Below the pieces are notes generated by a model that did no database searches, was not told the DNA's origin, and worked only from the letters and a program-made list of their open reading frames with translations. Positions 9,152-51,476 of a DNA stretch of 64,000 nt are shown here, piece by piece. The first letter of the stretch is position 1. Every line of letters starts with the position of its first letter. The position numbers were made by a program, and so were the translations under genes. The stretch is from Planctomycetota bacterium (lineage in GTDB: Bacteria > Planctomycetota > JAFGQW01), in contig JAFGQW010000084.1 of assembly GCA_016935485.1 (NCBI GenBank), positions 1,450-65,449 of the forward strand, in the 5' to 3' direction.

Positions 9152-10831
9152 ATGCTGTGGGAAACGCTGAGCGCGGCCCGCGACCTGGGGCGGTTGCACG
9201 CCATCGCCTCGGTGCTGGTCCGCTACGGCTTCAGCGACCTGGTGCGCCGCCTGGGCATGAGCCGCGTGCTCGAGAAGGCCGGCCGCGCGCTCCGCTGGAA
9301 GCGCCTGGAGCGCATGGCGCGGCTCACCCCGGCCCAGCGAACGTGCCAGGCTCTCGAGGAGCTCGGCCCCACCTTCGTCAAGCTCGGCCAGCTGCTCGCC
9401 ACCCGGGTCGACATGCTCTCGCCCGAGTGGATCGAGGCGTTCGAGACGCTGCAGGATCGCGTGCCGTTCGTGCCCTTCGACACCCTCCGGCCCCGCATCG
9501 AGGAGGAGCTCGGCACCCCGCCCGACGCCGTGTTCGCGAGGCTGGATGCCGAGCCGGTCGCCGCCGCGTCGCTCGCCCAGGTGCATCGCGCCTGGCTCGC
9601 CGACGGCACGCCGGTGGCCGTCAAGATCCGCCGGCCGGGGGTCACCCAGACGATCGCCGCCGATCTCAGGCTGCTGGAGCGGCTGGCGGAGATCGCCGAG
9701 ACGGAACTGCCCGAGTTCCGGCGGTTCCGGCCGCGCGAGCTCATGCGCCAGTTCGGCCGCGCCATGCGGAAGGAGCTCGATTTCTCCCAGGAATGCCGCC
9801 ACGCCGAGCGCGTGGCCCGGACGTTCCGCGAGGTGCCGTACTTCAAGGTCCCGCGGGTCTACTGGCAGTGGACCACGCCGCGCCTTAACGTGCAGGAGTT
9901 CGTCGAGGGCATCGCCGGACGGGATCTCGCGCGGGCGAAACAGAGCGGGCTCGACCCGAAGGTGCTGGCCGAACGCGGCGCCCGGATCGTGCTGAAGATG
10001 ATCTTCGAGGACGGCTTCTTCCACGCCGACCCGCACCCCGGCAACCTCTTCTACCTGCCCGACAACCGGATCGCGCTCATCGACTTCGGCATGGTCGGCC
10101 GCCTCACCGAGACCCGCCGCCAGGAGGTCGTGCGGCTGCTGACCGCCCTGGTGGATCGCGACGCGTTGGGCGCGGTGGACGTGCTGGCCGACTGGTCGGG
10201 CGAGCGCCCCGTCGAAACCGAGTCCCTGGCGGCGGAGATCGACGAGTTCATCGACGACTACCACGACCTCGCGCTGGGTCAGATCGATCTGGGGGCGATG
10301 CTGTCCGACATGATGCGCGTGGTCCGCGAGCACGGGGTGGCGCTCCCGCACGGGCTGGCGCTGCTGATCCGCGCGCTGATCTCGCTCGACGGCGTCGGCC
10401 GCCGCCTCGACCCGGAGTTCAGCGTCGTCGAGGCGGCACGCCCGTTTCTCCGGCGCACGATGCGGGAGCGCTACCGCCCGGAGGCGATCGTCCGGCGGGC
10501 CCGCCACAACCTGGCCGAGACCGTGGATCTGCTCATCGGTCTGCCGCGCGACGTCCGGCGCCTGGTCAAGGCCGCGCGGCGGGGCGCCATCCAGCTCAAG
10601 CTGGATCTCGGCCGCCTGGACCAGTTCGGCAAGCAGCTCGACCGCGCCGCCAGCCGTCTGACCGTGGGGCTGGTCACCGCCGCCATCATCATCGGCACCG
10701 CCATCGTGATGACCATGGCGAGCGGGCTGACGCTCTACGGCATCCCGCTGCTCGGCTACCTGGGGTTCCTCACGGCGCTGCTCGCCGGCGCCTGGCTGCT
10801 CGTCTCCATCTACCGCAGCGGCCGGGGATGA
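9152..10831 (+). CDS. ubiB: UbiB/ABC1-family atypical kinase (ubiquinone biosynthesis regulator).
   Basis: Internal Met of ORF 8291..10831. ABC1/ADCK motifs (ASLAQVHRA...VAVKIRRPG, FFHADPHPGNLF, DFGMVGRL). Two C-terminal TM helices. 559 aa. Confidence 0.88.
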   Translation: MLWETLSAARDLGRLHAIASVLVRYGFSDLVRRLGMSRVLEKAGRALRWKRLERMARLTPAQRTCQALEELGPTFVKLGQLLATRVDMLSPEWIEAFETLQDRVPFVPFDTLRPRIEEELGTPPDAVFARLDAEPVAAASLAQVHRAWLADGTPVAVKIRRPGVTQTIAADLRLLERLAEIAETELPEFRRFRPRELMRQFGRAMRKELDFSQECRHAERVARTFREVPYFKVPRVYWQWTTPRLNVQEFVEGIAGRDLARAKQSGLDPKVLAERGARIVLKMIFEDGFFHADPHPGNLFYLPDNRIALIDFGMVGRLTETRRQEVVRLLTALVDRDALGAVDVLADWSGERPVETESLAAEIDEFIDDYHDLALGQIDLGAMLSDMMRVVREHGVALPHGLALLIRALISLDGVGRRLDPEFSVVEAARPFLRRTMRERYRPEAIVRRARHNLAETVDLLIGLPRDVRRLVKAARRGAIQLKLDLGRLDQFGKQLDRAASRLTVGLVTAAIIIGTAIVMTMASGLTLYGIPLLGYLGFLTALLAGAWLLVSIYRSGRG

Positions 10832-12316: not shown

Positions 12317-13783
12317 CTACTGCTCCAGGATTGCGGCGCGCTCGGCCTCGACGGCCTGCCGCTCGGCCTCGGACAGCTCGCCGGCGGGATAGTCTCCCGT
12401 GAAGCAAGCGGTGCAGAAGGCCCGGATCTCGCGGTTGCCCGCCCGCGCGGCGTCCACCATGGCGTCGACCTCCTGGTAGAAGACCCGGTCGGCGCCAATC
12501 TCCGCCGCGATCTCCTCCAGGGTGTGGTCGGCCGCGATGAACTCCTTCCGGGTCTGCATGTCGATGCCGTAGTAGCAGGGGAAGCGAATCGGCGCGGAGT
12601 AGGACAGGAAGTAGACCTGGCGCGCCCCGGCTTCGCGCGCCAGCCGGACGATCTGCCGGGAAGTGCTGCCGCGGACGATGGAGTCGTCCACGAGCAGCAC
12701 GCGCTTGTCCTCGAACTCGAAGCGGATGGCGTTGAGCTTGCGGCGGATGTTCTGCTCGCGCTGGAGCCGGCCGGGCATGATGAAGGTCCGGCCGATGTAG
12801 CGGTTCTTCACCAGCCCCTCGGAGTACTTCACCCCTAGCTCGGTCGCCATGGCGGTGGCGGCCGGACGCGCGCTCTCCGGCACCGGGATGATCACGTCCA
12901 CCTCGATGCCGGTCTGCTTCCAGGCGCGCGCCAGGCTGCTGCCCATGCGCGTGCGCGTCTTGTAGACGCTGATGCCGTCGATGACACTGTCGGGGCGTGC
13001 AAAGTAGACCTGCTCGAAGATGCACGGCCGGGGATCGCCGGGCGCCACCTGCCGGGACACCATGCCGCCCATCGCGTCGAGGAACACCGCCTCGCCCGGC
13101 CGGAGGTCGCGGGCGCCCTGGAAACCGAGCAGATCCAGGGTGACCGACTCGCTCGCCACGCAGTGCTCGACGCGCCCGCCGGCCGAACGGCGCTCTCCCA
13201 GGATGCAGGGCCGGATGCCGTGCGGATCGCGGAAGGCGAGGATCCCGTGACCGGCGACGAGCGCCACCACCGAGTAGGCGCCCTTGACCCGCGTGAACAC
13301 GCCGCGCACCGCCCGGAACAGGTCCTCGGCCTTAAACGCGCGATCCGCGCGCGTCACGACGCCCTTGTCGAGCTCGTCGGCCAGCACGTTGAGAATGACC
13401 TCGGCGTCGCAGTCCGAGTTGACGTGGCGGCGATTGTCCCGGAAGAGCTCGGCCTTGAGCTCGCGGAAGTTGGTAACGTTGCCGTTGTGCGCCAGCGCAA
13501 TGCCGTAAGGCGCATTGACGAGAAACGGCTGGGCATCCCGCCCTTTGCCTTGGCCGACCGTCGGATAGCGCACGTGGCCGAGCCCGAGTTGGCCCGTGAG
13601 ACGCCGCATGTGCTTCAGGCCGAAGATGTCGCTCACCAGCCCGAAGCCCTTCTTCAGGTGGAAGCGGTCGTCGAAGGTCACCATGCCCGCCGCATCCTGC
13701 CCCCGGTGCTGGATGGAGATGAGGCCGTTGTAGAGATCGTGCACGACGTGGCCTTCGCCCCGGATCGCGATGATGCCGCACAT
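12317..13783 (-). CDS. purF: Amidophosphoribosyltransferase (purine biosynthesis).
   Basis: N-terminal MCGIIAI (Ntn Cys1). PRTase motif (VLLVDDSIVRGSTSRQIV). Fe-S cysteines (CTACFTGDYP). 488 aa. Confidence 0.96.
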   Translation of the reverse strand: MCGIIAIRGEGHVVHDLYNGLISIQHRGQDAAGMVTFDDRFHLKKGFGLVSDIFGLKHMRRLTGQLGLGHVRYPTVGQGKGRDAQPFLVNAPYGIALAHNGNVTNFRELKAELFRDNRRHVNSDCDAEVILNVLADELDKGVVTRADRAFKAEDLFRAVRGVFTRVKGAYSVVALVAGHGILAFRDPHGIRPCILGERRSAGGRVEHCVASESVTLDLLGFQGARDLRPGEAVFLDAMGGMVSRQVAPGDPRPCIFEQVYFARPDSVIDGISVYKTRTRMGSSLARAWKQTGIEVDVIIPVPESARPAATAMATELGVKYSEGLVKNRYIGRTFIMPGRLQREQNIRRKLNAIRFEFEDKRVLLVDDSIVRGSTSRQIVRLAREAGARQVYFLSYSAPIRFPCYYGIDMQTRKEFIAADHTLEEIAAEIGADRVFYQEVDAMVDAARAGNREIRAFCTACFTGDYPAGELSEAERQAVEAERAAILEQ

Positions 13784-13907
13784 GGAAACCGCACCTCAGG
13801 AGGACGGAGGGGAGGAGAAACCCCTGCGCAAAGGGGATCTATAGCCCAGCGGGCGCGGCCCCATCAAGGCGAGGCGGGCCGGCGGCGCGCGGCCAGGGCC
13901 GGGCCCG

Positions 13908-16553
13908 TCAATGGACGCGCCCCGCGGGAACCAGGTCGAAGCTCGAGCGATCGCCGTCGGCCCAGAAGCCGATCTCGTCCACCGCAGCCTCCCCCGCGCG
14001 AGCGAACGCCACCTCGAGCGTCCGCGCGGCCCCGGCCGCACCGCGGCCGCGGCCCTCCCGCTCCACGTAGCGCCCGCCGGTCGGCGGCAGGGCCAGGCGC
14101 TCGAGCTCCTCGCCCGCGCTCCCGCGCACGACCAGCGCGCCCTCGACCGTCGCGCGGTAGCGGATCGCGCAGCGATAGGGCCCCGGCGCGGCATCGGCGC
14201 ATTCCGCCCGGACCACGACGCCGGTTCGCCCGGCCGCCAGCACCGCGACGTGGAGATCGCGCGCGGCGAGATCGCCCTGCTTCTCGCCGGCGGCGCCAAG
14301 CCATGTCGCGCCCTTGAAGATCGCCCACGGACCGCGGTCGACCCGGCGCACGCCGACCAGGAGCTCGTGGCCGGCCACCCCGGCCGGAAGGACCGCAATC
14401 AGCCCGCCCTGCCACGCCCCCCCCGGCGCCACCGCATCGACCGTCTCCTGCCCGACGAGCGCGCGCAGCGCTCCTTCCGGCGAGCGCGTGAACAGGAACA
14501 GCTCGGGGCGGTGCGCCGCCGCCGGGTCCCGGTTCCTGAGGGTGAGCCGCACCTGCACGCGCTCGCCGGGGCCCGGCGCGGCCGGCGTGACGTCCACGGA
14601 AGTGAGCGCGATCCACGCACGTTCGATCCAGACCTCCGCCACCGCCGCGGCGGCGCCCGCCCGGCAACGGAAGCACAGCTCGAGCTGGCCGTCGTCGGCG
14701 ATCGCGCCGGAGGGCAGCGAATACGCGAGCTCGCGCGGCCGGAACGTCAGCGGCACGGGCCCGTGGAGGCGGTGCGCTCCCGCCCACAGCTCCTGGTAGG
14801 GCACGAGGCCGAACTTCCCCGCTTCGTGCCCGCCGTAGTACGTGACGCGCACCTGGCAGGGCTGACGCAGGTCGAGATCGCGGTAGCGGAAGCGAAGCTC
14901 CGGAGCACCCCACGCCACGTTCATCTCGGGCACCCGCGCCGTGGAGTAGGTGCCCCACGGCTCGTAGTCGCCGCTCCGGCCCGCCTCCCGCACGAGATGG
15001 GGCGCGGTCCGCGGATGGCCGGCGTCGTCGTAGCGCAGCACCTCGCCGCGGCGGAACTTCGCCTTGGCCGGATGGTAGTGCGGCAGCACCTCGAACCGCA
15101 CGACATAGACCGTGGCGAGCAGCGGCAGCGCCGCAAGCACCGGCGCCGCGATGCGGAATGCCGACACTCCCACCACGCGCCGCACCCCGGCCACCCCGAG
15201 CAACGTCGCCGGCAGGAGGACCGCGTGCAGGTCGCGGCCGGACGGCTGCTGGCCGAGGAGGCTCCAGACCAGCAGCGCCGCGAACGTGACGGCCACCGCC
15301 GCCAGGGCGAACAGCAGCGTGCGCCCGTCGAACCAGCTCAGAGCGGCCGCTGCTTCTTCCTCCTCGTCCGCGCCGGCGGCGGGAGGCACCTCGCCGCCCC
15401 TCGAGGCGGCCATCACGCGGGGATCGTCGGAGAGCACGAAATGCTCGGGCGACGCGAGCCGCGCCGGCGGGCGGCGCCCGCGGCACCAGGCGCGCCACCG
15501 GTCGCGCACCAGCAGCAGAACTCCGCCGGCGGCCACGCCTCCCAGCGCGAGGAAGACCAGCAGCAAGGGGCGGGAGAGGGCGAGCTCCCCGCCGCCGAGC
15601 TCCCCGAGATACCCGCGGACCAGACGCGCCGCGCCGTGGCCGAGGGCGCCTTGGTCCATGGCGAACCCAAGTGGCCGCTCCGGCCCGGCCGTCGTCAGCA
15701 GGAACCTCGGCACAAGCCCGTCGCGGGGAGCGAGATCGGCGAAGCACCACCAGCCCGCGACCGCGACGGCCGCGAGCGTGATCAGCGCCACCGCGCCGTT
15801 CCAGACGACGGCCGGGCGCCACGGCCCCACCGCGGCGAGCCCCACGGCGACGGGCAGCAGCAAGGCCGGGACCAGACCGCTCGGCCGGGTCATGACCGCG
15901 GCGCCGAGCACGAGTCCGAGCAGGACGGCGTGCCACGGCTCGGTCAGGAAACGGCCCGCCAGCGTGCGCACGTAGAGGGCGTAGGCCAGCGTGCCGAGTG
16001 CGGCAACGGCGATGGCATCCGACGCCACCGCGGCCGACAGGACCACGCCCGGAAGGAGCGCCCAGCCCACCGACGCGGCCACCGCGCGCCGGTGCACGCC
16101 GAGCGCCCAGCGCGCCCCGAGGCAAAGCCCGGCGAGCAATACCACGCCGAACAGCAGGCTCACCGCCCGCAGGGGATAGATCGGACTCGGCACGAGCTCG
16201 TCGCGGTCCGCGCGGCGCACGTACTCGATGTCCGTGCGGTAGGGACCGGGCAGGAACGAGAGGCGGCGAACCGCCTCGAGCCGCGGGCTCGCGGGGTCCA
16301 GACGGCCCGGCGCAGCGAACCTCAGCGCCGCTGCGCCCACGAGGTGGTACAGCGAGGGCGGACGCGGCGCGGCGAGCGGCGTGGCGGCGGCATCGGAACC
16401 ACCGGGGCTGTGGAGCCGGATGGCCCGGGCGAGGTGGGCGTCCTCATCCGGGCCCGCGCCGGCCGGGATCGCCAGCGCGAGGTAGCCGCCGAGCAGGACC
16501 AGCGCCAGGAGAGCGGCCGCTGCAAGAAGGCGAGAGACAGCGCGTGGGCTCAT
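13908..16553 (-). CDS. Large polytopic membrane protein, GT-C-fold glycosyltransferase-like (ArnT/PMT_2 family-like), with a ~350-aa C-terminal extracytoplasmic domain.
   Basis: 881 aa. About 12 predicted TM helices. First-loop acidic motif (GPDEDAHLARAIRL) resembles the DE/DD motif of ArnT/PMT enzymes. The soluble C-terminal domain has no recognisable family. Confidence 0.6.
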   Translation of the reverse strand: MSPRAVSRLLAAAALLALVLLGGYLALAIPAGAGPDEDAHLARAIRLHSPGGSDAAATPLAAPRPPSLYHLVGAAALRFAAPGRLDPASPRLEAVRRLSFLPGPYRTDIEYVRRADRDELVPSPIYPLRAVSLLFGVVLLAGLCLGARWALGVHRRAVAASVGWALLPGVVLSAAVASDAIAVAALGTLAYALYVRTLAGRFLTEPWHAVLLGLVLGAAVMTRPSGLVPALLLPVAVGLAAVGPWRPAVVWNGAVALITLAAVAVAGWWCFADLAPRDGLVPRFLLTTAGPERPLGFAMDQGALGHGAARLVRGYLGELGGGELALSRPLLLVFLALGGVAAGGVLLLVRDRWRAWCRGRRPPARLASPEHFVLSDDPRVMAASRGGEVPPAAGADEEEEAAAALSWFDGRTLLFALAAVAVTFAALLVWSLLGQQPSGRDLHAVLLPATLLGVAGVRRVVGVSAFRIAAPVLAALPLLATVYVVRFEVLPHYHPAKAKFRRGEVLRYDDAGHPRTAPHLVREAGRSGDYEPWGTYSTARVPEMNVAWGAPELRFRYRDLDLRQPCQVRVTYYGGHEAGKFGLVPYQELWAGAHRLHGPVPLTFRPRELAYSLPSGAIADDGQLELCFRCRAGAAAAVAEVWIERAWIALTSVDVTPAAPGPGERVQVRLTLRNRDPAAAHRPELFLFTRSPEGALRALVGQETVDAVAPGGAWQGGLIAVLPAGVAGHELLVGVRRVDRGPWAIFKGATWLGAAGEKQGDLAARDLHVAVLAAGRTGVVVRAECADAAPGPYRCAIRYRATVEGALVVRGSAGEELERLALPPTGGRYVEREGRGRGAAGAARTLEVAFARAGEAAVDEIGFWADGDRSSFDLVPAGRVH

Positions 16554-16690
16554 GCGATCGGTTCAACCGTCGGGCAGTCCAGGCGCCGCCGCGCGCCCGG
16601 CACCGGTCGGGTCGAAGGGTACGCGGGCCGCGGCCGGAATGCAACCCGCGATCGCGGCGCCCGCCCGCGCCGGCGCGGCGCCCCGCCGGC

Positions 16691-17833
16691 TCATGCCCGC
16701 CGCACCGCCTGGAACCGCTTCGCCATGCGTTTTTTCACCTCGAACCACCGCATGCGCGCCTGGCGGCGGTAGAAGTCGAAGTTGCGCGGCTCCACGGGAT
16801 TCTCGTTCACGAGAAAGCAGTTCTGGCAGAAGACGTTCAGCTTGCCGGTGTGGAACTGGCGGCGAAGCCGCCGCATGGCCGGCCCGTTCCAGATGCGGCG
16901 CATCGGCTCGCGGAGCGCGTCGCCGAGGTAGATGTCCGTCGGGTAGCAGCACGGAAACACCTCGCCGCCGTGGTTGACTCCGATACTCTGGCCCACGAAC
17001 CAGCAGACCCCGTCGTGGCGGAACTGCAGGAGCGGGGGATCCTCCGGCCGCGGCGGCGGATCGGCGATCACGTTGGGGTAGCCGATCTCGTGGAGGATCA
17101 CCGTCTGGTTGAGACGGCGCGCCTCCGCCGCAGTCTCGGCGACGATCGCGTCGAGCTCGGCCCGCGGCATGGCGGTCAGGATGTCCTCGCCTTCGAGGCC
17201 GGCGTGGGTCTTGAAGACGCGCTGCACGTGCAGCAGATCGAAGCCGAGCTCGCGCACGAAACCGACGAAGGCCGGCAGGAACCGCACGGTGCTCTTCAGG
17301 ATCGCCGCCTGACAGTGGTAGACGAAGGACTTGCCCTCCGCGTCCAGGATCGCCTTCATCATGCGCAGGTTGTCCACCACGCGCTCGTAGCTCGAGCGGA
17401 CCCGGATGCGCTCGTAGCCGTCCTTGTCGGGACAGTCCATGGAGACGTGCAGCAGATCGAAGAGCGCGCGGCTCGCCCGGAAGCGCTCCTCGGTCATGTT
17501 GAAGCACGAGGTGAACATATCGATCTTCACCTGGTAGTGCGCCGCGAGTGCCACGATCTCGTCGAAGTCGTTGATCAGCGGCTCGCCCGCGGCGGTCAGC
17601 ACCACCTTCCTGGCGGCCGGAAAGAGCTGGTGGCAGATGCGCTCCACATCGCGCAGCTTGACGGCGTGGATGGGCACCCCGGTGTGGTGCCAGCAGGTCA
17701 CGCACCGCAGGTTGCAAGCATTGGAGTGGTTGAGGTTCACGATCTCCGGCAGGCTCCGGAACACCTCGCGCTTGTCGCGCCAGTCCTGGCGGAGCCGGCG
17801 GCTGTTCTCGGCCTTGTATTCGAGGAGATCCAT
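16691..17833 (-). CDS. Radical SAM enzyme with a C-terminal SPASM/twitch-type auxiliary Cys cluster domain.
   Basis: Cx3Cx2C motif (CNLRCVTCW) about 40 aa from the chosen start. C-terminal Cys-rich segment (FPCCYPTDIYLGD...CQNCFL). Start chosen at the internal ATG (MDLLEYK), which has a GAGGAAG RBS. The ORF-track ATGATG start at 17932 has a poor RBS. 380 aa. Confidence 0.82.
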   Translation of the reverse strand: MDLLEYKAENSRRLRQDWRDKREVFRSLPEIVNLNHSNACNLRCVTCWHHTGVPIHAVKLRDVERICHQLFPAARKVVLTAAGEPLINDFDEIVALAAHYQVKIDMFTSCFNMTEERFRASRALFDLLHVSMDCPDKDGYERIRVRSSYERVVDNLRMMKAILDAEGKSFVYHCQAAILKSTVRFLPAFVGFVRELGFDLLHVQRVFKTHAGLEGEDILTAMPRAELDAIVAETAAEARRLNQTVILHEIGYPNVIADPPPRPEDPPLLQFRHDGVCWFVGQSIGVNHGGEVFPCCYPTDIYLGDALREPMRRIWNGPAMRRLRRQFHTGKLNVFCQNCFLVNENPVEPRNFDFYRRQARMRWFEVKKRMAKRFQAVRRA

Positions 17834-17965
17834 ACGCACTTCCTCGACCCGGGAATCGTCGAGACCGCGGACCGCCGACTCGTCGCCGGGATCGAGGTCT
17901 CCCCGGCGCCGCGGGGCAGGAGGCTCCATCATACTCCCGGTGCCGCGAAAGGGCCAGGACGGGGC

Positions 17966-18015
17966 TGTGCGGGGGTCCGGGGTCAGACCCTGTGCGGGGG
18001 TCCGGGGTCAGACCC
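17966..18015. repeat. Perfect tandem direct repeat, 2 x 25 nt (tgtgcgggggtccggggtcagaccc), in the divergent intergenic region. A third partial copy (cgtcagaccccgggcgg) follows.
   Basis: Read directly at 17966-17990 and 17991-18015. It lies between the radical-SAM start (17833, minus strand) and the GT-C gene start (18201, plus strand). Confidence 0.6.
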
Positions 18016-18056
18016 CGTTCCGAAGCGGAACGGCGTCAGACCCCGGGCGGCCTGAC

Positions 18057-18138
18057 CGCGGGCGCAATCCGCCCGCGCCACGCAGCGCGCGCCCTTCGCG
18101 CGCGACACCCGCACCCCCGCGGGCGCAATCCGCCCGCG
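18057..18138. repeat. Two copies of a 22-nt palindromic element (cgcgggcgcaatccgcccgcgc) about 60 nt apart. They flank a CG-alternating palindrome (gcgcgcgcccttcgcgcgcg).
   Basis: Each copy can form a 7-bp GC stem (cgcgggc/gcccgcg) with a 7-nt loop. Located 60-140 nt upstream of the 18201 start codon. The exact edges are ±2 nt. Confidence 0.5.
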
Positions 18139-18200
18139 CTGTGGTATGCTGGCGCGCCGGAATCCGGGTCGGGGTGATCTCGCTGTGACGGCGGAACGGT

Positions 18201-20039
18201 ATGCGGCGCGCGCTCGCTCTGGTCGCCTTGCTCGTCCTCGTGGCGCTCCCCCTCCGCGGGGCGCTCGACGTCGGTTTCCTGCAGGACGACTACAACGTCG
18301 CCCAACTGCTGGGCTCCGAGCTCGCCCTGGACGGGCCGACCCTCTACCGCCTCTTCCACCCGCCGGCCGACGAGCAGGACGCGCGACTACGGCCGCTGAC
18401 GTACCTGACCCTCGCCCTGGATCTGGCCGTGTTCGGGCTGGACCCGCTGGCGCTGCACTTGAGCGGGCTGCTCTTCCACCTGATCTCGACGGCCCTGGTC
18501 TTCGTCCTGGCAGGCGTGCTTGCCCCTCGGGCGCGCGCCTTCCCGTGGGTAGCCGCCCTGTTCTTCGGGCTGGCACCGGTGCACGCCGACGCAGTGGCCT
18601 GGCTCGCGGCGCGCGCCGATCCGGTCGCAGGCACGTTCGTGCTCGCCACCCTGCTCGCCTACGTGCGCTACCGGCGCACCGCCCGCCCGCTCGCCGCCGC
18701 GGCTTGCCTGCTGCTCTACGCGGCCGCGCTGCTTTCCAAGGAAGCCGCGGTCATCACCCCCGGCCTCGCCCTCCTCCTGGAGCCGGCGCTCCGCCGGCGC
18801 CCCCGGCCCGGCGGCCTCGTGCCCGCCCTGAGCGGGCTGGGCCTGCTCACCGCCGCCTACCTGCTCTACCGCCGTCATCTCTTCGGCGTCTTCCTCGGCC
18901 ACTACGGAGCCCGCGATGCCGCCTCGTGGTCCGTCGCTCCCGGCGACGTGACGTATGCCGGCCGCATGTTCCTCGCGGACGTTCCCGGGTCCGCCCTCGC
19001 GTCGGTGCTGCTCCTCGCGCCGATCGTCTTCGGAGCCGTCTGCCTTGTCATCGCGCGCCGTCCGCTCCGGGCGCGGTCGATCGCCGCCGGAGCGCTGCTC
19101 TTCCTCCTCGCGATCGTCGTGGCCGTGCTCCCGGTCGCGCCGTTTCTCGGCCAGGCCAGCGGCCGGCACTTCTATCTCGCGGCCGCACCGCTCGCCGGCC
19201 TGCTGGCGGCGGCCGTGACGGTACCGCGGCGGCGCGCGGCGGGAGCAGCGCTCCTGCCGGCCGCGCTCGTGCTGCTGTACGGAGCCGCGTCCGTCCTCGG
19301 GCTCCGGACGCGCATCGAGATGTACGTCGAGGCCAGCGCGATCACCGCAGCGGTGGCCCGAGACCTCGGGGCCCTGCGGGCCGCACACCCCGACGTGGCG
19401 GTCTTCGTGGTGGGCGACCTGCGGAGCGCCTGGCGCCGCGCACCGCTGCTGCACTCGGGCGCGGCCGGACTGGCGCAGCCGCCGTTCCAGCGCGAGCCGG
19501 TGCCGATCCGCGCGCACTTCGCCGGCCAGCCTCGGGACTACCGCTGGGAAGCGTACGTGATCCGCAAGCCGGCCGTCTTCCTTCGCCTGCGGACCGCCGC
19601 GCCGCTGCCGGGGCTCGAGCCCGTGTCGCCCATCCTGCGCTCGCTCCCGCCGCGGGAGGAAGACCCGGCCTACGCGTGCCTCTCTCCCGCCGCCGGCGCG
19701 GCGGTCCGCCTCGACGGCGACACCCCGTTTCGCTTCCGCATCCCCGCCGACCTGCCCTGGCCGATCCGCCTGGTGTTCGCGCTGCCGGGAGACCGGGTCG
19801 CGCCCCTGCTGATCGGAGCAACGAACGTCGTGGAGGAGCCCCCCGCTCCGGACCGGTCCCGCACGCTGGTCTGGCGGCCGCGCCAGGGCGCCCTCGGCCT
19901 GGCGGCGGCGCTGCCGCTCGAGGCCCCGCCCGCCGCGCCGGTGGGGGCGGCCTGGTGGATCGAGGAGGCGGACCTCGAGCACGCCGGCGTCCGGACCGTC
20001 CGCGCGAGCCCCGTCGCGCGATTCGTGGTCCAGCCCTGA
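18201..20039 (+). CDS. GT-C-fold glycosyltransferase-like polytopic membrane protein (PMT/TMTC-like), paralogue 1. It has an N-terminal TM bundle and a ~230-aa C-terminal soluble domain.
   Basis: 612 aa. First-loop motif FLQDDYNV. About 10-11 TM helices. The same architecture and motif are shared with the genes at 22140 and 24539. Confidence 0.6.
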   Translation: MRRALALVALLVLVALPLRGALDVGFLQDDYNVAQLLGSELALDGPTLYRLFHPPADEQDARLRPLTYLTLALDLAVFGLDPLALHLSGLLFHLISTALVFVLAGVLAPRARAFPWVAALFFGLAPVHADAVAWLAARADPVAGTFVLATLLAYVRYRRTARPLAAAACLLLYAAALLSKEAAVITPGLALLLEPALRRRPRPGGLVPALSGLGLLTAAYLLYRRHLFGVFLGHYGARDAASWSVAPGDVTYAGRMFLADVPGSALASVLLLAPIVFGAVCLVIARRPLRARSIAAGALLFLLAIVVAVLPVAPFLGQASGRHFYLAAAPLAGLLAAAVTVPRRRAAGAALLPAALVLLYGAASVLGLRTRIEMYVEASAITAAVARDLGALRAAHPDVAVFVVGDLRSAWRRAPLLHSGAAGLAQPPFQREPVPIRAHFAGQPRDYRWEAYVIRKPAVFLRLRTAAPLPGLEPVSPILRSLPPREEDPAYACLSPAAGAAVRLDGDTPFRFRIPADLPWPIRLVFALPGDRVAPLLIGATNVVEEPPAPDRSRTLVWRPRQGALGLAAALPLEAPPAAPVGAAWWIEEADLEHAGVRTVRASPVARFVVQP

Positions 20040-20162
20040 GAGGACCCGCGCCGGCCGGCCCGACCCCCTTGAACCGCCGGGGCGACATGCGAGAATGGCG
20101 CCGCGCACGGAGATCCGCCGCGCTCCGCCGGCGGGTCCGGACGATTCGCGAAGGAGACTGCC

Positions 20163-21236
20163 ATGAAACTGTCGTGTGGCCTCGGGTTCGGCTGCCTGGT
20201 GCTGGCCGCGGTGCTGGCTGCCCTCCCGTCGGCGGGCGCCCAGTCCGCCGGGGAGCGGTACAACCAGATCCTCCAGGAGACCGAGGAAGACTACTACAGC
20301 TGCGCCAAGGTCAAGGACAAGAAGGCGCGCGAGAAGGCCTACATCGAGCACGGCCAGCGCGCCACGGCCCTGTGGGAGGGCTTCCTCCGCGACCATGGTG
20401 AGACCTCCATGGCCTTCAATGCCAGGCTCAACCTGGCGCAGGCGCTCGACATGGCCAAGGAGACGGCGCGCGCCCGCGCGGTGATGGAGGAGGCCGCAGC
20501 CGCCGCGTACACCTTCCGCGAGATCACCCAGGCGGCCGAGATCACGAAGATCGTCTGCCACAGCGTGAAGGACGCCTACGACGTCATCGAGCGCGCCATG
20601 GCGAAGGTGGACGAGCCGGAGATGAAGGGCTCCCTCCACCTGGAGCTGTTCAAGTACCTCGAGATGCCGAAGAACCTGCAGGCGGACGAACAGCCGGCCC
20701 ACCGGAAGAAGATGTACCGCGAGCTCGCCGAGGCCATCGTCAAGCAGTATCCGGACACGAGCGCCGCCAAGGAGGCCGGGCTGATTCTCCGCGGGCTGGA
20801 CCTCAAGGTGGGCGATCCGCTGCTCAATCTCGCCGACTTCACCGACGCCGCGGGCGACCCCATCGATCTTGCCGCCTACTCGGGCAAGGTGGTCCTGCTG
20901 CACTTCTGGACCGGTCCGCGGAACGCCCGGCGCTCTCTCCAGACCCTCGTGAACCTCCACGGCGAGCTCCACCCCAAGGGACTCGAGGTCGTGGGCATCA
21001 ACTGCGACTACGCGGAGGACCACGAGCGCAACATGCTGGCCATGATCGAGGCGCTCGGCATCCCGTGGCGCAACTACCACGACGGCCAGAAGCTGCACAA
21101 CCGGATCGCCCGCATCTTCCACGTGCGCAAGTACCCCAGCAACATCGTGATCGGCCGCGACGGCAAGATCGCCGCCCTCGACGTCCCCACCGCCCAGCTC
21201 GAGGACAAGCTCCGGGAGCTCGTCGGCGGATCGTGA
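20163..21236 (+). CDS. Secreted TlpA/redoxin-like thioredoxin-fold protein with an N-terminal helical domain. The active-site CxxC is replaced (FWTGPRNARR), so it is predicted redox-inactive.
   Basis: Signal peptide (LVLAAVLAALPSAGAQS). The C-terminal ~150 aa are colinear with TlpA/ResA (GKVVLLHFW...LEVVGINCD...YPSNIVIGRDGKI), but both catalytic Cys positions are T and R. Confidence 0.7.
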   Translation: MKLSCGLGFGCLVLAAVLAALPSAGAQSAGERYNQILQETEEDYYSCAKVKDKKAREKAYIEHGQRATALWEGFLRDHGETSMAFNARLNLAQALDMAKETARARAVMEEAAAAAYTFREITQAAEITKIVCHSVKDAYDVIERAMAKVDEPEMKGSLHLELFKYLEMPKNLQADEQPAHRKKMYRELAEAIVKQYPDTSAAKEAGLILRGLDLKVGDPLLNLADFTDAAGDPIDLAAYSGKVVLLHFWTGPRNARRSLQTLVNLHGELHPKGLEVVGINCDYAEDHERNMLAMIEALGIPWRNYHDGQKLHNRIARIFHVRKYPSNIVIGRDGKIAALDVPTAQLEDKLRELVGGS

Positions 21237-21261
21237 CCCGCGCGCGCGAAGGACGCCGTTT

Positions 21262-21846
21262 TTGGCCATGATCGACCGCTTCCAGGTGAAGGGCGCCGGC
21301 TCCTCGGCGCTCGTGGTGATCGACGTGCAGACGCGGATGGTGCAGGCGCTCGCGCCCAAGGTCGTGCGCCGCAACGTCGGCAACATGGCGCTGCTCCTCG
21401 AGGCCGCACGCGCCCTCGCGATCCCGATCCTCGTGACCGAGCACTACCCGCAGGGGCTCGGCCCGACGATCGAGTCCCTCGGGCCGCTGCTCGCGGGCGC
21501 GCGCACCCTGGAGAAGATCGTCTTCAGCGGCACCGGCGCGCCGGGCTTCCGCGAGGCGCTGCGCGCGACCGGCCGGGAGCACATCGTGCTGATCGGCACC
21601 GAGACCCACGTCTGCGTGGCCCAGACCGCGCTCGACCTCCTGGCCGAGGGCTACCACGTGCACGTCCCCTCGGACGCCGTGCTGTCGCGCTTCACGGACG
21701 ACTGGCAGGGCGGGCTGGCCTTCATGCGCCAGGCGGGCGCCGTGGTCACGCGCACCGAGACGCTGGTTTTCCAGTGGCTGGAACGGGCCGGCACGGAGGT
21801 CTTCCGGCGCCTGTCGCCCCGCATCAAGAACCGCAGCGCCGAGTGA
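21262..21846 (+). CDS. Isochorismatase-family (cysteine hydrolase) protein.
   Basis: 194 aa. SALVVIDVQ at the N-terminus. Catalytic Cys context (IGTETHVCVAQTALD). Lys and Asp positions are conserved. Confidence 0.78.
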   Translation: MAMIDRFQVKGAGSSALVVIDVQTRMVQALAPKVVRRNVGNMALLLEAARALAIPILVTEHYPQGLGPTIESLGPLLAGARTLEKIVFSGTGAPGFREALRATGREHIVLIGTETHVCVAQTALDLLAEGYHVHVPSDAVLSRFTDDWQGGLAFMRQAGAVVTRTETLVFQWLERAGTEVFRRLSPRIKNRSAE

Positions 21847-22139
21847 ACGGGCCCGCGCCGGACTGACTTCCCCGGGTTTCGCCGCGAGGTTCGGGTTCGT
21901 GGGGCGCGAAGCCGGCTCCAATCGGCGATGCCACCGACGCTCCGCCGCGCGGACCTCGGCAGGAAGATCCGCGAGAACGGGAAGCGGTTCCGGCACGGGC
22001 CCCAAGGTCCGGGCCGCGCCGTATTGACTCCCCGGCCCCGCCCGCGTACATTCCCCCCCTGACGCGGGGGGACTCGCCGGCGGCGCGAACCGCCCGCGCG
22101 GCCAGACCGGGTCACCCGCCGCCCCAGGAACCCATTGGC

Positions 22140-24542
22140 ATGACCGACAAGCCCCACCCCGCCGGCCGGACGACCGTCGCGCTGGCCGCCATCGCCGTGA
22201 TGATCATAGCCGCCGTCGCCTACCTGCCGGCCCTCGACGACTCGTTCTTGCAGGACGACTTCCTCCTCGTCGGGCAGTTCTTCACGGACACCGGGACCTT
22301 CGAGCTCCCCCGCCAGCCCGCGCTGACCTTTCCCACCGGGTTCCTTCCGTTCTGGACGCACGTTCTCGACAGCTACCTCTGGGGCGCCCACGCCGTCGGC
22401 CACCGCATCACCAGCCTGCTCGTGCACGTGCTCGCCGCGCTGCTGGTCTTCGTGCTGGTCCGCAGAGTCGCCGGCGGCCGGACCCTGGTGGCATTCCTCG
22501 CCGCCGTCTTCTTCGTCCTCTCACCGCTGCACCTCAACGCCGTCCACTGGATCTCGGGACGCTCGCTCACGCTCGCGATCGTCTTCCTGCTCCTCGCCGC
22601 GCTGGCGGCGACCCGCCGCCGGCCCGCGCCGGTGCTTTCCGCCACGGCCTACCTGGCCGCGCTGCTCTGTCACCCCGCCGCCTTCACCGCGCCGCTCGTC
22701 GCGCTGCTGGTCGACGTGGTGGCCGGGCGCGGCGCCTGGCGCGGCCGCCTGCTGACCATCCACCTGCCGCTGCTCGCGCTGATGGCCGCTTACATCGTGT
22801 TCCAGTCCACGACCGGCGAGCGCCTCTGGCACACCCGGAACGTCCGCGCCGCGCTCGCGCCTGCGGTCCTCCTCGACACGCTCGCGCGCCTCATCGTCCC
22901 GCTCAACGAAGCAATCACCAACCCGGCCAAGGCCCCGCTGCTCAAGTGGGGCGTGCTGCTGGGTCTCCTTCCCCTGCAGATCCTGGTGCTGATCGTCCGC
23001 CGGGCAGCGCCGCCGCGTACGTTCTGGGTGGGGCTGATCTGGTTCGTGGTGATGCTGATCCCGATCCTGCCGTCGGCGCGCCTCGGGACGGAGCTGGCCG
23101 ACTCGCGCGTCTTCTACGGCGTGGTGCCCCCCCTTGCTCTGATGCTCGCGGCGCTGTTCCTCGCCGACACAGCGGTCTTCCGCCCCTCCGCCGGACGCGC
23201 CGCGGACCGCCGCGCGCTCGCCCGCGCCACGGTGTTCGCGCTGGTATTCGCGGTCTCGCTTGTCCTGGCGCTGGTCAAGAACGGCCAGGCCTACGCGGGC
23301 GCCGGCCGCCTCGTGCGCCACGTGCAAGACGCTGCGCTCGAAGCCGCGCGCGGGGAATCCGCGGATTCGTGGATCTACCTGATGGAGCCTCCGAGTGCCT
23401 ACGCCGGCGCGCCGGTGTTCGCGACGGGCCTCAAGCGGGCGCTCGCCCCGCCGTTCAGGACCGCCGCCGAAGCCCGCCGGATCGGCGTGGTGCACGTGCG
23501 CGACATGGCGCCGCTGCTCGAGCGCCTGCGCGGGGTCCACCCGCCGCTCGTCGTGCTGTGGATGCACGCCGCCGGGCTGGAGCCGCGCCGTCCGTTCGCG
23601 CGGATCTCGCCGCTGTTCCCGGCAACCGGCGAGCCCGACGAGCCGTTCCTGCCGCCACGGTTCGCCGGCGCGGAGCTCGCCACGTGGCGGCCAGACAGCG
23701 GGCTGGTCGGCGCGGCGGACGAGCGGGGTTTCGTGGGCCAGACCTCGAGCGAGGATCCCTGGCTGCTGTCACCACCGATGGTGATCCCGAGCGACTGGAT
23801 CGAGGCGGTCAGCGTGCGGATGAGCGTGCACGGCAGCCGGGAGCCCGTGCTCCCGGTGGATCTCTTCTGGGCCGAGCTGTCCCGGCCGGACGCCTTTCGC
23901 CCCGAGCGCTCCTGCCGCCAGTTCGTGCCCACGACCGGCGCGATGGAGACCCTGACTTTCGCGCTTTCGCCGCCGGACGGCGCCCGGCCGCCCGAGCGGT
24001 TTCTCGCGCGGCTCCGGCTCGATCCGCCCCCCGGGCCGGCCGCGGTGCACATCGAGTCGATCGCGCTCGTCCCGGGGCCCGGGTGCCCCTGCGCGCAGCG
24101 CGTGGCGGCATCCTGGGAGGGCCCGGAGCTCGCCGGCTGGACGGTCGCGCCGGGCACCACCGGAAGGCTCGAGAATAGCGACCTCGTGCTGCGGACCCAG
24201 GGCGTGGACCCCTACGCCGTCTCTCCGGTTCTCGACCTTCCGGCGGCCGCCCTGCGGGGGATCGAGGTCGCGCTGCGCGTGGACGCCGCGAGCACCGAGG
24301 CGGCGATCTACTGGGCCACGGACACTCCGGAAGGCTTCTGCGAGGAACAGCGCCTGCCCTTCACGGTCGCCGCCGGCGACGGCCAGTTCCACCGCTACAC
24401 GCTGTGGTTCCAGGAACGCGCTCGGCTGGCGCCGGACACGCGGATCCGGGCCATTCGCGTCGATCCGATGGCCGGTCCCGGCACGGCCTGGATCCGGCTC
24501 GTGAAGCTGTACCAGGACGCCCTCGACAGAGCACGACGATGA
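22140..24542 (+). CDS. GT-C-fold glycosyltransferase-like polytopic membrane protein (PMT/TMTC-like), paralogue 2, with a ~290-aa C-terminal soluble domain.
   Basis: 800 aa. First-loop motif SFLQDDFLLV. Multiple TM helices. The C-terminal domain is unrelated in sequence to paralogues 1 and 3. Confidence 0.6.
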   Translation: MTDKPHPAGRTTVALAAIAVMIIAAVAYLPALDDSFLQDDFLLVGQFFTDTGTFELPRQPALTFPTGFLPFWTHVLDSYLWGAHAVGHRITSLLVHVLAALLVFVLVRRVAGGRTLVAFLAAVFFVLSPLHLNAVHWISGRSLTLAIVFLLLAALAATRRRPAPVLSATAYLAALLCHPAAFTAPLVALLVDVVAGRGAWRGRLLTIHLPLLALMAAYIVFQSTTGERLWHTRNVRAALAPAVLLDTLARLIVPLNEAITNPAKAPLLKWGVLLGLLPLQILVLIVRRAAPPRTFWVGLIWFVVMLIPILPSARLGTELADSRVFYGVVPPLALMLAALFLADTAVFRPSAGRAADRRALARATVFALVFAVSLVLALVKNGQAYAGAGRLVRHVQDAALEAARGESADSWIYLMEPPSAYAGAPVFATGLKRALAPPFRTAAEARRIGVVHVRDMAPLLERLRGVHPPLVVLWMHAAGLEPRRPFARISPLFPATGEPDEPFLPPRFAGAELATWRPDSGLVGAADERGFVGQTSSEDPWLLSPPMVIPSDWIEAVSVRMSVHGSREPVLPVDLFWAELSRPDAFRPERSCRQFVPTTGAMETLTFALSPPDGARPPERFLARLRLDPPPGPAAVHIESIALVPGPGCPCAQRVAASWEGPELAGWTVAPGTTGRLENSDLVLRTQGVDPYAVSPVLDLPAAALRGIEVALRVDAASTEAAIYWATDTPEGFCEEQRLPFTVAAGDGQFHRYTLWFQERARLAPDTRIRAIRVDPMAGPGTAWIRLVKLYQDALDRARR

Positions 24543-26863
24543 GCACTGAGCCACCGCGGACCGCGAGCACGACCGTCTACACCGCGCGCTACCTCCTCTA
24601 CTCCACCGCCGGACTGCTCGCTGCGGTGCTCGTCGGCTACGCTCCCGTGCTGGCCAACCCCTTCCTGAGCGACGACCTCAACTTCCGGGTGTTCTTCCGC
24701 GGCGCCGAGCTCGACTGGGCGCGGATCCTCGGCGAGCTGTGGAGCGGCTGGGGCGGCCTGGTGGGCGCCGACTACTACCGGCCGCTGCTCACCGCGTCGG
24801 TGGTCGTGGACTACCTCGCCTGGGGAGCGAACCCGTTCGGCTGTCATCTGACCAACGTGCTGCTTCACACGCTCAACGCCACGCTGGTCGCGCACATCAT
24901 CATGCGGATCGCCGGCCCGGGAAAGCGCTACCCGGCGCTCCTTGGCGCGCTGGTCTTCGCCGTGCATCCCGTACACCCCGAGGCCGTTGCCTGGATTGCC
25001 GGCCGGGTCGATGTGCTCAGCGCCTTGTTCTTCCTGCTCACGGTGCGCTGCTACCTCGCCTATCGCTGGACCGGCCGGCGGCGCCACCTGATCGCCTCCC
25101 TGGTCGCGCTCGGCCTTGGGCTCGGCTCGAAGGAGTCGGCGGTGATGGCGCCGGCGGTGCTCGTCGCGCTCGACCTCGGGCTCAAGCTCGCGCGCGGCAC
25201 GCCGCGCTGGGGTCTCGGCGCCCGGACAGCGGTGCTCGCGCCGCTGGCCCTCGTTGCCGGCTACGTGGTGCTGCGCAAGCTGGTGCTCGGGAGCGTCGCG
25301 GGCAGCCAGGACCTACTGGCCCCCTACGCATCGGCCGGCGCGCTCGTCGCGACCCTCAAGCAGACGAGCATGAAGCTCTTCCTCCTGGTCGCGCCGGCCA
25401 ACCCCGCCGCGACGGGTCGCACGGGCGCCGCACTCTTCCAGGGGGCGGTGATCCTGATGATGCTGCTGCCGTTCCTCGCGCTGCTCACCCACGGCAAGCG
25501 CACCATTCCGGGGCCGCTTCTCGGCGGCGCGCTGATCCTCTTTCCCCTCGCGCTCGTGAGCCACATCCTGGTCGATCCCGACAACCTCGCCAACAGCCGG
25601 GTGCTCTACCTGCCGGCCGCGGGGTTCGTCGTGATGCTCTACTCGGCGCCGTGGGATCCGCGGGTCCGGCACGAGCTCCGCCGCCTCGGAGCGGCGCAGA
25701 TGGCCGTGCTGTCGCTGCTGATCGCCGGCGCCTACTTCGTCATGCTCCGCCTGAATCTCCGCCCGTGGACCGAGGCCGGTCGCATCATGAACACGCTCGT
25801 CCGCGAGGTCGACCGCGTCGAGGCCGACACGCCCGGCCACCGCAAGATCGTGGTGAAGGGGCTGCCCGACGTCCACCAGGGCGCCTACGTGGCGCGCAAC
25901 GGCTTCGTCTTTGCGCTGGTCCGCCCGTTCCACCACCGCGACATCACGCGGGTCTTCCCGGTGCTGGACTACTTCTACGGCCGCGACCCTGGAATGCTGC
26001 GCGCCGTGCACGGGGACCGGACGCGCATCGTGCTCTGGGACCTGGCGCGCCACCGACTGCTCGACCTGCCGCCGCCCCAGGAGGCCACCCACCAGATGAG
26101 CGCAGAGGACGGGCGCGCCTGGGCCGATCTGGCCGGCGGCGCGTGGACGCCGGAGCCCGGGCTCGAGCGGCAGGTGCACCCCGACGGCGGAGTGACGCTC
26201 GTCGCGCGGCGCGAGGGCGCCGGCCTGCGCGGCCCGGTGATGCGCATCTCCCCCGAGGCACTGCCGGCGCTCCGCTTCCGGCAGGCCGGCACGGCGCAGC
26301 TCGCGCTGGGCTGGTCCACGGCCGCCGAGCCCGACGTGTTCCCGACGAGCCCGGTGATGACGTTCCCGCCGCACGCGGGCGAGCGCACGGTGGCCCTGGT
26401 GAACCACGCCACCTGGTACCTGCCGGCCGCCCCGCCGGTGGGCCGACTGCGCCTTTCGGTCTGGCCGCAGAATACACCGCTGGTGCTCACCGACTTCACC
26501 CTCGTCCGGAGACTGCCGCGCCTGCCGCTCGCCATCGAGACCGAACCGCTGCTCCCCGAACCGGGAGCGCCCCTGGTGCTGCCGCTGCTGCGCTGCCCCT
26601 ACACGCACTTCAAGATCGTGATCCTCAACCCGGCCGCCCCGCACGCCGTGGCGATCGCGCGCCCGGCGGAGGCGGACACGCCGCTCGTGGTGCCGGCCGC
26701 CGGGCTCGCGCACCTCCACACCGTGGCCTGGGCGCTCGGAGGCTTCGAGGCCCTGCTGTATGTGGACGCGGTCGAGCCCGACCTGAACCCCCTCACCACC
26801 CGCGCGCGCAGCCGCCTCTTCACGGTGCGCTTCGCGGGCGCGGTGCGCCCCGGGCGGCGGTAA
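24539..26863 (+). CDS. GT-C-fold glycosyltransferase-like polytopic membrane protein (PMT/TMTC-like), paralogue 3. It is translationally coupled to paralogue 2.
   Basis: Internal Met of ORF 24404..26863. Its ATG overlaps the upstream stop (ATGA). First-loop motif PFLSDDLNFRVF. 774 aa. Confidence 0.6.
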   Translation: MSTEPPRTASTTVYTARYLLYSTAGLLAAVLVGYAPVLANPFLSDDLNFRVFFRGAELDWARILGELWSGWGGLVGADYYRPLLTASVVVDYLAWGANPFGCHLTNVLLHTLNATLVAHIIMRIAGPGKRYPALLGALVFAVHPVHPEAVAWIAGRVDVLSALFFLLTVRCYLAYRWTGRRRHLIASLVALGLGLGSKESAVMAPAVLVALDLGLKLARGTPRWGLGARTAVLAPLALVAGYVVLRKLVLGSVAGSQDLLAPYASAGALVATLKQTSMKLFLLVAPANPAATGRTGAALFQGAVILMMLLPFLALLTHGKRTIPGPLLGGALILFPLALVSHILVDPDNLANSRVLYLPAAGFVVMLYSAPWDPRVRHELRRLGAAQMAVLSLLIAGAYFVMLRLNLRPWTEAGRIMNTLVREVDRVEADTPGHRKIVVKGLPDVHQGAYVARNGFVFALVRPFHHRDITRVFPVLDYFYGRDPGMLRAVHGDRTRIVLWDLARHRLLDLPPPQEATHQMSAEDGRAWADLAGGAWTPEPGLERQVHPDGGVTLVARREGAGLRGPVMRISPEALPALRFRQAGTAQLALGWSTAAEPDVFPTSPVMTFPPHAGERTVALVNHATWYLPAAPPVGRLRLSVWPQNTPLVLTDFTLVRRLPRLPLAIETEPLLPEPGAPLVLPLLRCPYTHFKIVILNPAAPHAVAIARPAEADTPLVVPAAGLAHLHTVAWALGGFEALLYVDAVEPDLNPLTTRARSRLFTVRFAGAVRPGRR

Positions 26864-40912: not shown

Positions 40913-41088
40913 GTCTCCATGGAAAACGATGCGAGGCCGGCGCGCAAGGACGTTGTTCCCGCGCCGGCGCCGGCTGGCGGGAAAACGCTGTGCGAATGCG
41001 AGAATATGGGGTAGGCTCTCCTCCTCCGGCCGGTCCGCTGTCGCCGGGCTTTGCGCCGGGGAACCTGCCGCCACAGGAAGGTCCGTTC

Positions 41089-50858: not shown

Positions 50859-51116
50859 GGAGGGATCTCCTTGCGCATCGCCTGCCAGCATCGGAAGCGC
50901 GGCCACACCGTGGGGCGCGGCCACACCGGAGTTTTTCGGCATGGGCGCCCTCCAGCCTGAGCCCGGCCCGGGTTCCCGCCCCGCGCCGGCCCGGCCGCTT
51001 CCGCCGGCGGGCGCACCTGGTAGAATGCCGCGGCAGTCCGCTTCGAGAGACGGCAGCGATCCGGAGCGCGGCAAGCCCGGGCATGCCGTGACCTTCGGAA
51101 CCGGAGGCGCCAGACG

Positions 51117-51476
51117 ATGCCGCACGTGACGATCGAGGGCGCGCTCGACCTCCGGGCGTTCTCAGGCGAGTTCATCCCCGTCGTCGAGCAGCTCCCCTGG
51201 GGCCTCCTCCGGATCCGCAACGTCTACCTCGACGCCCGCGGTCGCACGCTGCTGTTCGAGGCCCTGGCCATGGAAAGCGGGGCGGGGCGCAGTTTCCTGG
51301 TCCGCGTCGAGACCAAGCGATCCGACCGCCACATGGTGCGCCTCGACCCGATCGTGCCGGTGGACCGGACCCGCGGGGTCCGGTCGGCCGTGGTCTGGGT
51401 GGCGCGGAGGCTCCGCGACCGCAACCCCGGCTGCGCGTTCGGCACCACCAACCTCGCGGAGCTCGCCGGGTCCTGA
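51117..51476 (+). CDS. Hypothetical small protein (119 aa).
   Basis: ORF with coding-like composition, divergent from the kinase-FGE gene. No motifs recognised. Confidence 0.4.
   Translation: MPHVTIEGALDLRAFSGEFIPVVEQLPWGLLRIRNVYLDARGRTLLFEALAMESGAGRSFLVRVETKRSDRHMVRLDPIVPVDRTRGVRSAVVWVARRLRDRNPGCAFGTTNLAELAGS

Follow-up and report, generated by a model that had tools for sequence, protein, structure and literature searches.

Among the described systems closest to the locus reported here, operator and upstream activator arrays between divergent promoters are made up of sites for regulators such as response regulators or enhancer-binding proteins. MITEs have terminal inverted repeats and a target-site duplication, and they are present in multiple copies. 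REP families number tens to hundreds of dispersed copies per genome, the REP consensus carries a GTAG head, and the gene for RAYT, a Y1 transposase, is typically flanked by REPs. REPINs are described in PMC3337134 as two REPs in inverted orientation around a spacer.

Here we describe a tract of about 190 bases (~17951-18139) that consists of GC-rich, duplicated palindromes between two divergent genes of an uncultured planctomycete. It lies in a 64-kb stretch of DNA from an NCBI metagenome-assembled genome (MAG), with a GC content of 72%, which we analysed as a whole and refer to as the window. A preliminary description had proposed that the tract was a binding array for a multimeric regulator or, alternatively, a REP-like or miniature mobile element. 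The explanation we prefer, at about even confidence, is a fast-evolving, REP-like, locally expanded repeat and hairpin tract between back-to-back promoters, with no dedicated regulator and at most a generic structural effect.

Organization of the intergenic tract

The divergent intergenic gap at 17834-18200 is 367 nt long and non-coding. Genes were placed by third-position GC frame analysis and Pfam. To the left of the gap lies a radical SAM/SPASM gene (hereafter rSAM; 16691-17833, minus strand), which encodes 380 aa with Pfam Radical_SAM and SPASM domains. Its homologues start with MDLLEY or an equivalent in 14 of 14 cases and have a length of ~380 aa. Because all of them are 380 aa long, the start is placed at 17833, in agreement with the gap limits originally drawn. 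The exact 380-aa product is already on record, as is the exact product of the gene to the right of the gap, a 612-aa membrane protein (18201-20039, plus strand). The latter had no match when Pfam, NCBIfam and PDB were searched. It does have paralogues of 27-29% identity at 22140-24542 and 24404-26863, the second of which shows a weak PMT_2 match. The gene had been called a GT-C paralogue; the GT-C assignment is indirect. The membrane proteins at 18201, 22140 and 24404 have almost no family signal, their sole matches being weak ones to PMT_2 and Agl23.

Third-position GC supported no hidden coding frame in the gap, and a six-frame pseudo-protein search of 5.8 billion proteins returned no match to an rSAM precursor peptide or any other coding sequence there. 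In two assemblies, ORFs of 43 aa had been called downstream of the rSAM gene; we also considered these as precursors, and rejected them on finding that they were mutually unrelated. Elsewhere in the window, a single 1,013-aa ORF at 48084-51125 (minus strand) joins a Ser/Thr protein kinase to a C-terminal FGE-sulfatase (formylglycine-generating enzyme-like) domain, and 52976-55956 (minus strand) holds a cluster of two PTS EIIA-type proteins and a PEP-utilising enzyme I homologue.

The core of the tract is a 13-nt palindrome, GGGGTC-A-GACCCC, present three times within 66 bp at spacings of 25 and 28 nt. The first two occurrences belong to the perfect 25-nt tandem direct repeat that had been reported, in which the unit CTGTGCGGGGGTCCGGGGTCAGACC is found at 17965-17989 and, as an identical second copy, at 17990-18014 (both on the plus strand). 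Copy 1 holds the palindrome GGGGTCAGACCCT at 17979-17991, and copy 2 holds GGGGTCAGACCCC at 18004-18016. The pair obtained a TRF score of 102 with 100% matches, is the only perfect long tandem repeat of the window, and is bounded by the microhomology CTGT/CCGT. A less regular tandem repeat (21 nt x 4.7, 90% matches) is located at 39608-39705, inside an ORF with no Pfam match (39578-41074, minus strand), where it probably encodes a 7-residue protein repeat.

A diverged, 28-nt third unit follows at 18015-18042 (plus strand), and the third partial copy of the 3' half of the 25-nt unit that had been noticed corresponds to a diverged copy at 18031-18050. Inside the 28-nt unit lies the hairpin CCGTTCCG-AAG-CGGAACGG (18015-18033). 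The hairpin is perfect as first described, with a stem of 8 bp in place of the 7 bp given to it, and its 3' end is overlapped by the third palindrome, GGCGTCAGACCCC, at 18032-18044. It also forms the centre of an imperfect 45-nt palindrome (18002-18046) with 21-nt arms that are 90% complementary, and a long hairpin is predicted here on both strands.

The remainder of the tract contains two identical hairpin units, B1 (18056-18078) and B2 (18117-18139), both on the plus strand. These had been presented as two copies of a 22-nt palindrome; there are indeed two, but the exact unit is 23 nt long, CCGCGGGCGCAATCCGCCCGCGC, with an 8-bp stem and the loop CAATC. The copies are 61 nt apart without flanking similarity. 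Between them, as had been observed, is a GC-alternating hairpin, GCGCGCG-CCCTT-CGCGCGC, with a 7-bp stem (18085-18103). Both duplicate pairs, the 25-nt and the 23-nt, are 100% identical in the window.

In shuffled sequence, 0.00 copies of the 25-mer and 0.06 copies of the 22-mer were expected, as against two observed of each. Neither has a further copy in the 64 kb, which bears out the claim that nothing comparable occurs elsewhere in the window. More generally, no unit of the tract recurs in the other 63.6 kb, and the 13-mer palindrome has no convincing copy elsewhere in the 64-kb window. Perfect stems of at least 8 bp are found at ~27 places in the 64 kb, three of which fall within the 124 nt from 18015 to 18138.

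Positions 17930-18031, with the two 25-nt copies, and the sequence from 18110 onward are found again in an independent Logan assembly. The MAG assembly is the only direct support for 18032-18109, and a metagenomic contig described below (L146) is colinear across this stretch. Within the tract, at 18031 and 18110, two of the Logan contigs (SRR13394437) break off, and 18032-18109 is left unassembled there. We considered these breaks as a possible sign of multiple copies and rejected the idea: because the opposite ends of these two contigs lie in ordinary coding genes (~12785 and 36440), the breaks at 18031 and 18110 are attributed to a fragmented assembly.

A shorter tract in a close relative

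A metagenome scan with the 20-mer GGGGGTCCGGGGTCAGACCC found a shorter, homologous tract on L146, a contig of 1,141 nt and 68% GC. By blastn, window positions 17931-17990 align with it at 93% and 18031-18116 at 88.5%, and homology stops at 18116. At the left end of the shared tract, the alignment includes a block of 34 identical nt (17933-17966). L146 has one palindrome GGGGTCAGACCCC versus three in the window, and one 23-nt hairpin, with the loop CAATT, versus two that both have CAATC. It lacks 52-53 nt, made up of one 25-nt copy and the 28-nt unit, and also the second 23-nt hairpin. Accordingly, copy 2 of the 25-nt unit has no counterpart in L146, the 28-nt unit is mostly without one, and B2 is absent. 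The stem of the GC hairpin is conserved in L146 and its loop is different.

Since L146 has a single palindrome and a single 23-nt hairpin, the alignment shows the extra window units to be recent, lineage-specific expansions. These units are the 25-nt duplication, the 28-nt unit with its small hairpin, and the second 23-nt hairpin. The last of them was copied after the lineages split, because both window loops read CAATC and the L146 loop reads CAATT.

Rather than a mobile element inserted a second time, L146 probably represents the orthologous upstream region of a close relative. We read it in this way because it shares two more non-coding blocks, in the same order, with another relative, L150, where they are located upstream of the orthologous membrane-protein gene. 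Block X (L146 317-365, L150 9700-9745) aligned with E = 5e-4, while block Y (L146 496-548, L150 9860-9910) was matched by 0 of 500 shuffles and ends in the AT-rich island TCATAGTAT. Block X holds CAGCTGTCAGC repeats, a further copy of which is found in L150 at 16786-16822, and the terminal AT island of block Y is near-palindromic, TCATAGTATGA. The two blocks together may form a promoter or operator region. The flanks of L146 differ from those of the window: one encodes a toxin-antitoxin pair, and the right one has other tandem repeats. The toxin-antitoxin proteins are two singletons confined to that 1,141-nt contig. At L146 1-180 there are two ~98-nt units containing (CTCGTG)n.

The same position in other lineages

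At nine loci with rSAM orthologues of 71-82% identity, the upstream regions were unrelated, less GC-rich and lacked every motif. No copy of the palindrome exists in L003-L011, L150, L151 or L152; related planctomycete loci without it amount to ~60 kb, and the close relative L146 is the only one to keep a copy.

Gene order across window positions 12317-26863 is conserved in planctomycete relatives despite only 44-59% identity in the 612-aa membrane protein. It comprises a PurF-like amidotransferase, an ~880-aa membrane protein and the rSAM/SPASM gene, followed in the divergent part by the ~612-aa membrane protein, AhpC/TSA-thioredoxin, isochorismatase and an ~800-aa membrane protein. In five lineages, with the order otherwise conserved, dinB stands between the rSAM gene and the membrane-protein orthologue. 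We compared this gene (DNA polymerase IV, IMS family) in L005-L007, L009, L010-L011, L151 and the P0125 contig; in two lineages, L005-L007 and L151, it overlaps the membrane-protein gene, whereas on the P0125 contig (JGI 3300042731) 357 nt separate the two. The window, L152 and L150 do not have dinB, and no remnant of it was found when we looked for one in the window gap.

L152 has the same divergent pair as the window, without dinB. Its gap is 222 nt long, contains no repeats and gave no alignment with the window gap. L150 has a 1.2-kb upstream region with tandem repeats of its own (12-nt x 7.4 and 24-nt x 2.8), located at 8884-8969 and 9919-9984. The 24-nt one, rich in purines, stops 16 nt short of the start codon. 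Homology of the window units with these 24-nt repeats was considered and rejected, as the similarity was not significant. The position upstream of the membrane-protein gene seems to be repeat-prone, with sequences that are unrelated between lineages.

Candidate promoters

Only two spots in the gap are AT-rich (at least 5 A/T in 8 nt), at 17925-17936 and 18140-18150, and the repeat tract fills the space between them. The left island, TCCATCATACTC (17925-17936), reads TATGAT on the minus strand, oriented toward the rSAM gene, and CATACT on the plus strand; it is a candidate -10 element. At the homologous position, L146 has CATAGTATAGT and L150 has CATAGTATGATGG. The right island, TGTGGTATGCT (18140-18150, plus strand), includes an extended -10-like TGnTATGCT (TGgTATGCT), a candidate promoter of the membrane-protein gene, and resembles GCGCTTGGTATCCT, which lies just upstream of the orthologous start codon in L152. 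From these sequences and their placement we infer that the two islands are back-to-back promoters of the rSAM and membrane-protein genes.

A scan for promoters and terminators yielded nothing of the sigma-70 type; its one terminator-like site, within the rSAM gene, is irrelevant. A candidate sigma-54 promoter at 17941-17956 (minus strand) was rejected, having four mismatches and 191 equally good sites in the window. ECF-type (GGAAC...CGT) and LexA-type (CTGT-N8-ACAG) boxes were sought by eye, and none fits.

Alternative explanations

The palindromes could belong to a dispersed REP/BIME- or MITE-like family, that is, a multi-copy element that spreads by means of, for example, a RAYT-type transposase and is clustered here by chance. 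We consider this unlikely. The REP-like or miniature element of the preliminary description agrees with the units in form: those in the extragenic 367-nt gap are discrete, short imperfect palindromes of 13 and 23 nt, rich in GC. It does not agree with their distribution in the 64-kb window, where a family of a few hundred copies should give several and no further copy is found. The exact 23-nt unit does appear again 61 nt away between dissimilar flanks, a point in favour of such a family. Beyond the window, the 20-mer GGGGGTCCGGGGTCAGACCC is present in six other metagenomic loci, and at least two further GGGTCWGACCC palindromes occur in 4 of 5 independent 20-mer loci compared to 4 of 120 control loci picked by 14-mer matching at chance level (Fisher p = 3.5e-5). 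In the 20-mer loci, the palindromes are situated at gene 3' ends, in convergent gaps and beside a tRNA, often as perfect hairpin pairs of the form GGGGTCAGACCCC-N4-5-GGGGTCTGACCCC, and the palindrome is repeated within a few kb. Judged by sequence and setting, the core palindrome is REP-like in these other genomes. However, the other six loci come from unrelated organisms of 50-63% GC, one of them a Gallionella-like betaproteobacterium, and, as REP families are so numerous and the search used this particular motif, the likeness may be coincidental.

Perfect hairpin pairs of the above form are located at L148 322-351, 451-480 and 3723-3752, and at L149 2779-2808 and 9060-9218. On the Gallionella-like contig, hairpin pairs recur every few kb, including at the pgi 3' end and beside a tRNA gene, and look like an undescribed REP family; an IS21 transposase gene is present on the same contig. 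Two short contigs of 53% GC carry several occurrences of a ~215-nt composite repeat that spans AGTCATGGGGGTCAGACCTACACTTTTGACTAAAT to CGAACCGTCAGGGTCTGACCCCGGACCCCC (L143 1-380 and 1990-2260; L144 2500-2720, GenBank JAALLP01).

Further evidence weighs against a dispersed family. L146, the sole extended homologue, appears to be an orthologous site, and the ~60 kb of related planctomycete loci are without the palindrome. When a collection of 185,579 genomes, to which the source genome does not belong, was scanned with a 21-mer of the 23-nt hairpin, we obtained 11 single matches with unrelated flanks, roughly the number estimated for chance. Scans of viral collections with three parts of the tract gave 0 matches, blastn against plasmids and phages gave none, and a literature search for the palindrome retrieved only unrelated primer sequences. 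In a Pfam scan of ~55 ORFs of the window there was no Y1 transposase, RAYT or cas, and the window as a whole has no RAYT or transposase.

The architecture of the tract also departs from that of the described elements. Its repeated units are direct, not inverted, and lack a GTAG head. Unlike the paired REPs of a REPIN, both 23-nt units run in the same direction with the same loop, CAATC, and all three GGGGTC-A-GACCCC palindromes have their central A on the same strand. In comparison with a MITE, the arms near the tract ends are 13-18 nt long and 78-92% complementary, nothing unusual at 79% GC; the tract is not flanked by a direct repeat, and no second copy in a different context is known. Neither does the tract resemble a CRISPR array, in which three or more repeats alternate regularly with unique spacers and cas genes are close by: it has just two 23-nt repeats, the 38 nt that would be their 'spacer' form a palindrome, and no cas domains are encoded in the window.

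It is quite improbable, in our estimate, that the tract is a cis-regulatory array in which the three GGGGTC-A-GACCCC palindromes are operator or upstream-activator sites of a dimeric or oligomeric factor co-regulating both genes. Such an array is what three near-perfect 6-1-6 palindromes within 66 bp look like, whether for an activator or a repressor, and their position between two candidate -10 islands places them upstream of both promoters; this resemblance counts against our preferred explanation. One palindrome and the 34-nt block beside the left island are, moreover, conserved in L146. Nevertheless, two of the three sites are owed to the perfect 25-nt duplication that is absent from L146, and no other region upstream of an orthologous rSAM or membrane-protein gene has the site. 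Spaced by 25 and 28 bp, or 2.4 and 2.7 turns of the helix, the sites are out of phase. Within ~15 kb on either side no regulator is encoded, the nearest sigma factor being an ECF sigma 16 kb off. There is no further site in the window to suggest a regulon, and the sigma-54-like match at the left of the tract is one among many.

The regulator-binding array originally proposed is therefore not upheld, given a multiplicity that is recent (L146 has one palindrome and one 23-nt hairpin), motifs missing from every other related locus, spacings that are not helically phased, and no DNA-binding regulator nearby. The accompanying claim, that the region controls expression of a modification island, is true in the trivial sense that both promoters must lie in the gap; as to control by the repeats themselves, it finds no support.

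A structured 5' leader or sRNA is very unlikely. Under this explanation, plus-strand transcription from the left AT island would produce a ~260-nt hairpin leader that modulates stability or translation of the membrane-protein mRNA. The homologous AT island of L150 is on the same strand, 88 nt upstream of the orthologous start codon, and the plus strand of the window tract folds better than shuffles (z = -3.6). However, the minus strand folds equally well (z = -4.1), as expected of palindromic DNA and not of a strand-specific RNA, and the shorter tract of L146 has no advantage over shuffles (z = -0.5). A comparison of the window with L146 shows conserved stems and variable loops. This pattern hints at constraint on structure and is compatible, weakly, with selection that our preferred explanation does not include, but it comes from two sequences only, among which no compensatory changes can be counted. 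Where dinB overlaps the membrane-protein gene, a leader is absent altogether, and the second -10-like element (18142-18150) is downstream of the tract. Rfam offered no family: across the entire window 0 matches reached a gathering threshold, and a search of the gap by E-value returned only sub-threshold, generic hairpin matches of 16-27 bits versus thresholds of 41-150. A search for tRNA and tmRNA found none.

The least credible alternative is that the copy number of the palindromic units provides tunable, contingency-type control of the rSAM and envelope-modifying membrane-protein genes, in which case gains and losses of 25-28 nt would alter promoter spacing or the number of regulator sites, switch expression within populations, and explain the unrelated tandem repeats at the same position in other lineages.

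Discussion

Our preferred explanation, a locally expanded and fast-evolving tract, builds on what the sequences show: the repeats exist, they expanded recently, other relatives lack them, and they lie between the AT islands. The ancestral tract would have comprised a single copy each of the GGGGTCAGACCCC palindrome, the 23-nt hairpin and the GC hairpin, an arrangement still seen in L146. An older duplication would then have given rise to the 28-nt unit, a very recent slipped-strand duplication to the perfect 25-nt copy, and a second copying event to the additional 23-nt hairpin. Because it lies between the gap's only two -10-like AT islands, the tract would be a spacer between the promoters of the rSAM and membrane-protein genes or, less likely, part of a long 5' leader. 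It would have neither a specific function nor a sequence-specific regulator. Its possible effects would be generic ones, such as those on promoter spacing, on RNA structure, or on supercoiling that is absorbed by a cruciform or hairpin.

Two observations count against purely local growth. The 23-nt hairpin was copied to a place 61 nt off with dissimilar flanks, where simple slippage fails as an account and the behavior resembles that of REPs. In addition, the 20-mer GGGGGTCCGGGGTCAGACCC is found again in unrelated metagenomic contigs amid clusters of the same palindrome, and the core unit may belong to a real repeat family.

If our preferred explanation is right, the tract is an undescribed but ordinary GC-rich palindromic expansion in weakly constrained intergenic DNA of an uncultured planctomycete. 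The case calls for caution, since a conspicuous array of repeats that separates divergent genes is not necessarily an operator. Comparison with one close relative sufficed to show that most of the array is no older than the split of the two lineages. The tract would acquire greater importance if variation in copy number were coupled to expression, or if GGGGTCAGACCCC were a dispersed family across phyla.

When placed in the context of known systems, the tract shares with operator and activator arrays its repeated dyad-symmetric sites between two back-to-back candidate promoters. It differs from them in having sites that are not conserved across orthologous loci, that changed in number very recently and that are unphased, and in having no adjacent regulator gene and no detected promoter of a matching class. 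With REPs, BIMEs and REPINs it has in common clustered, short, GC-rich imperfect extragenic palindromes, one unit of which was copied without its flanks, and the same palindrome makes hairpin pairs at gene 3' ends in other bacteria. In contrast to these elements, the units of the tract are direct and without a GTAG head, the window has no RAYT, the location is between two gene starts and not at 3' ends, and there is no dispersal within the 64 kb.

The likeness to slipped-strand VNTRs lies in the perfect head-to-tail 25-nt duplication bounded by microhomology and in a number of units that differs between close relatives, with three palindrome-bearing units in the window versus one in L146. Other, unrelated tandem repeats at the same position in L150 and L146 add to this likeness. 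The tract differs from such loci in that its 23-nt hairpin was copied to a non-tandem position, and its units are palindromic, which suggests hairpin-mediated template switching beside plain slippage.
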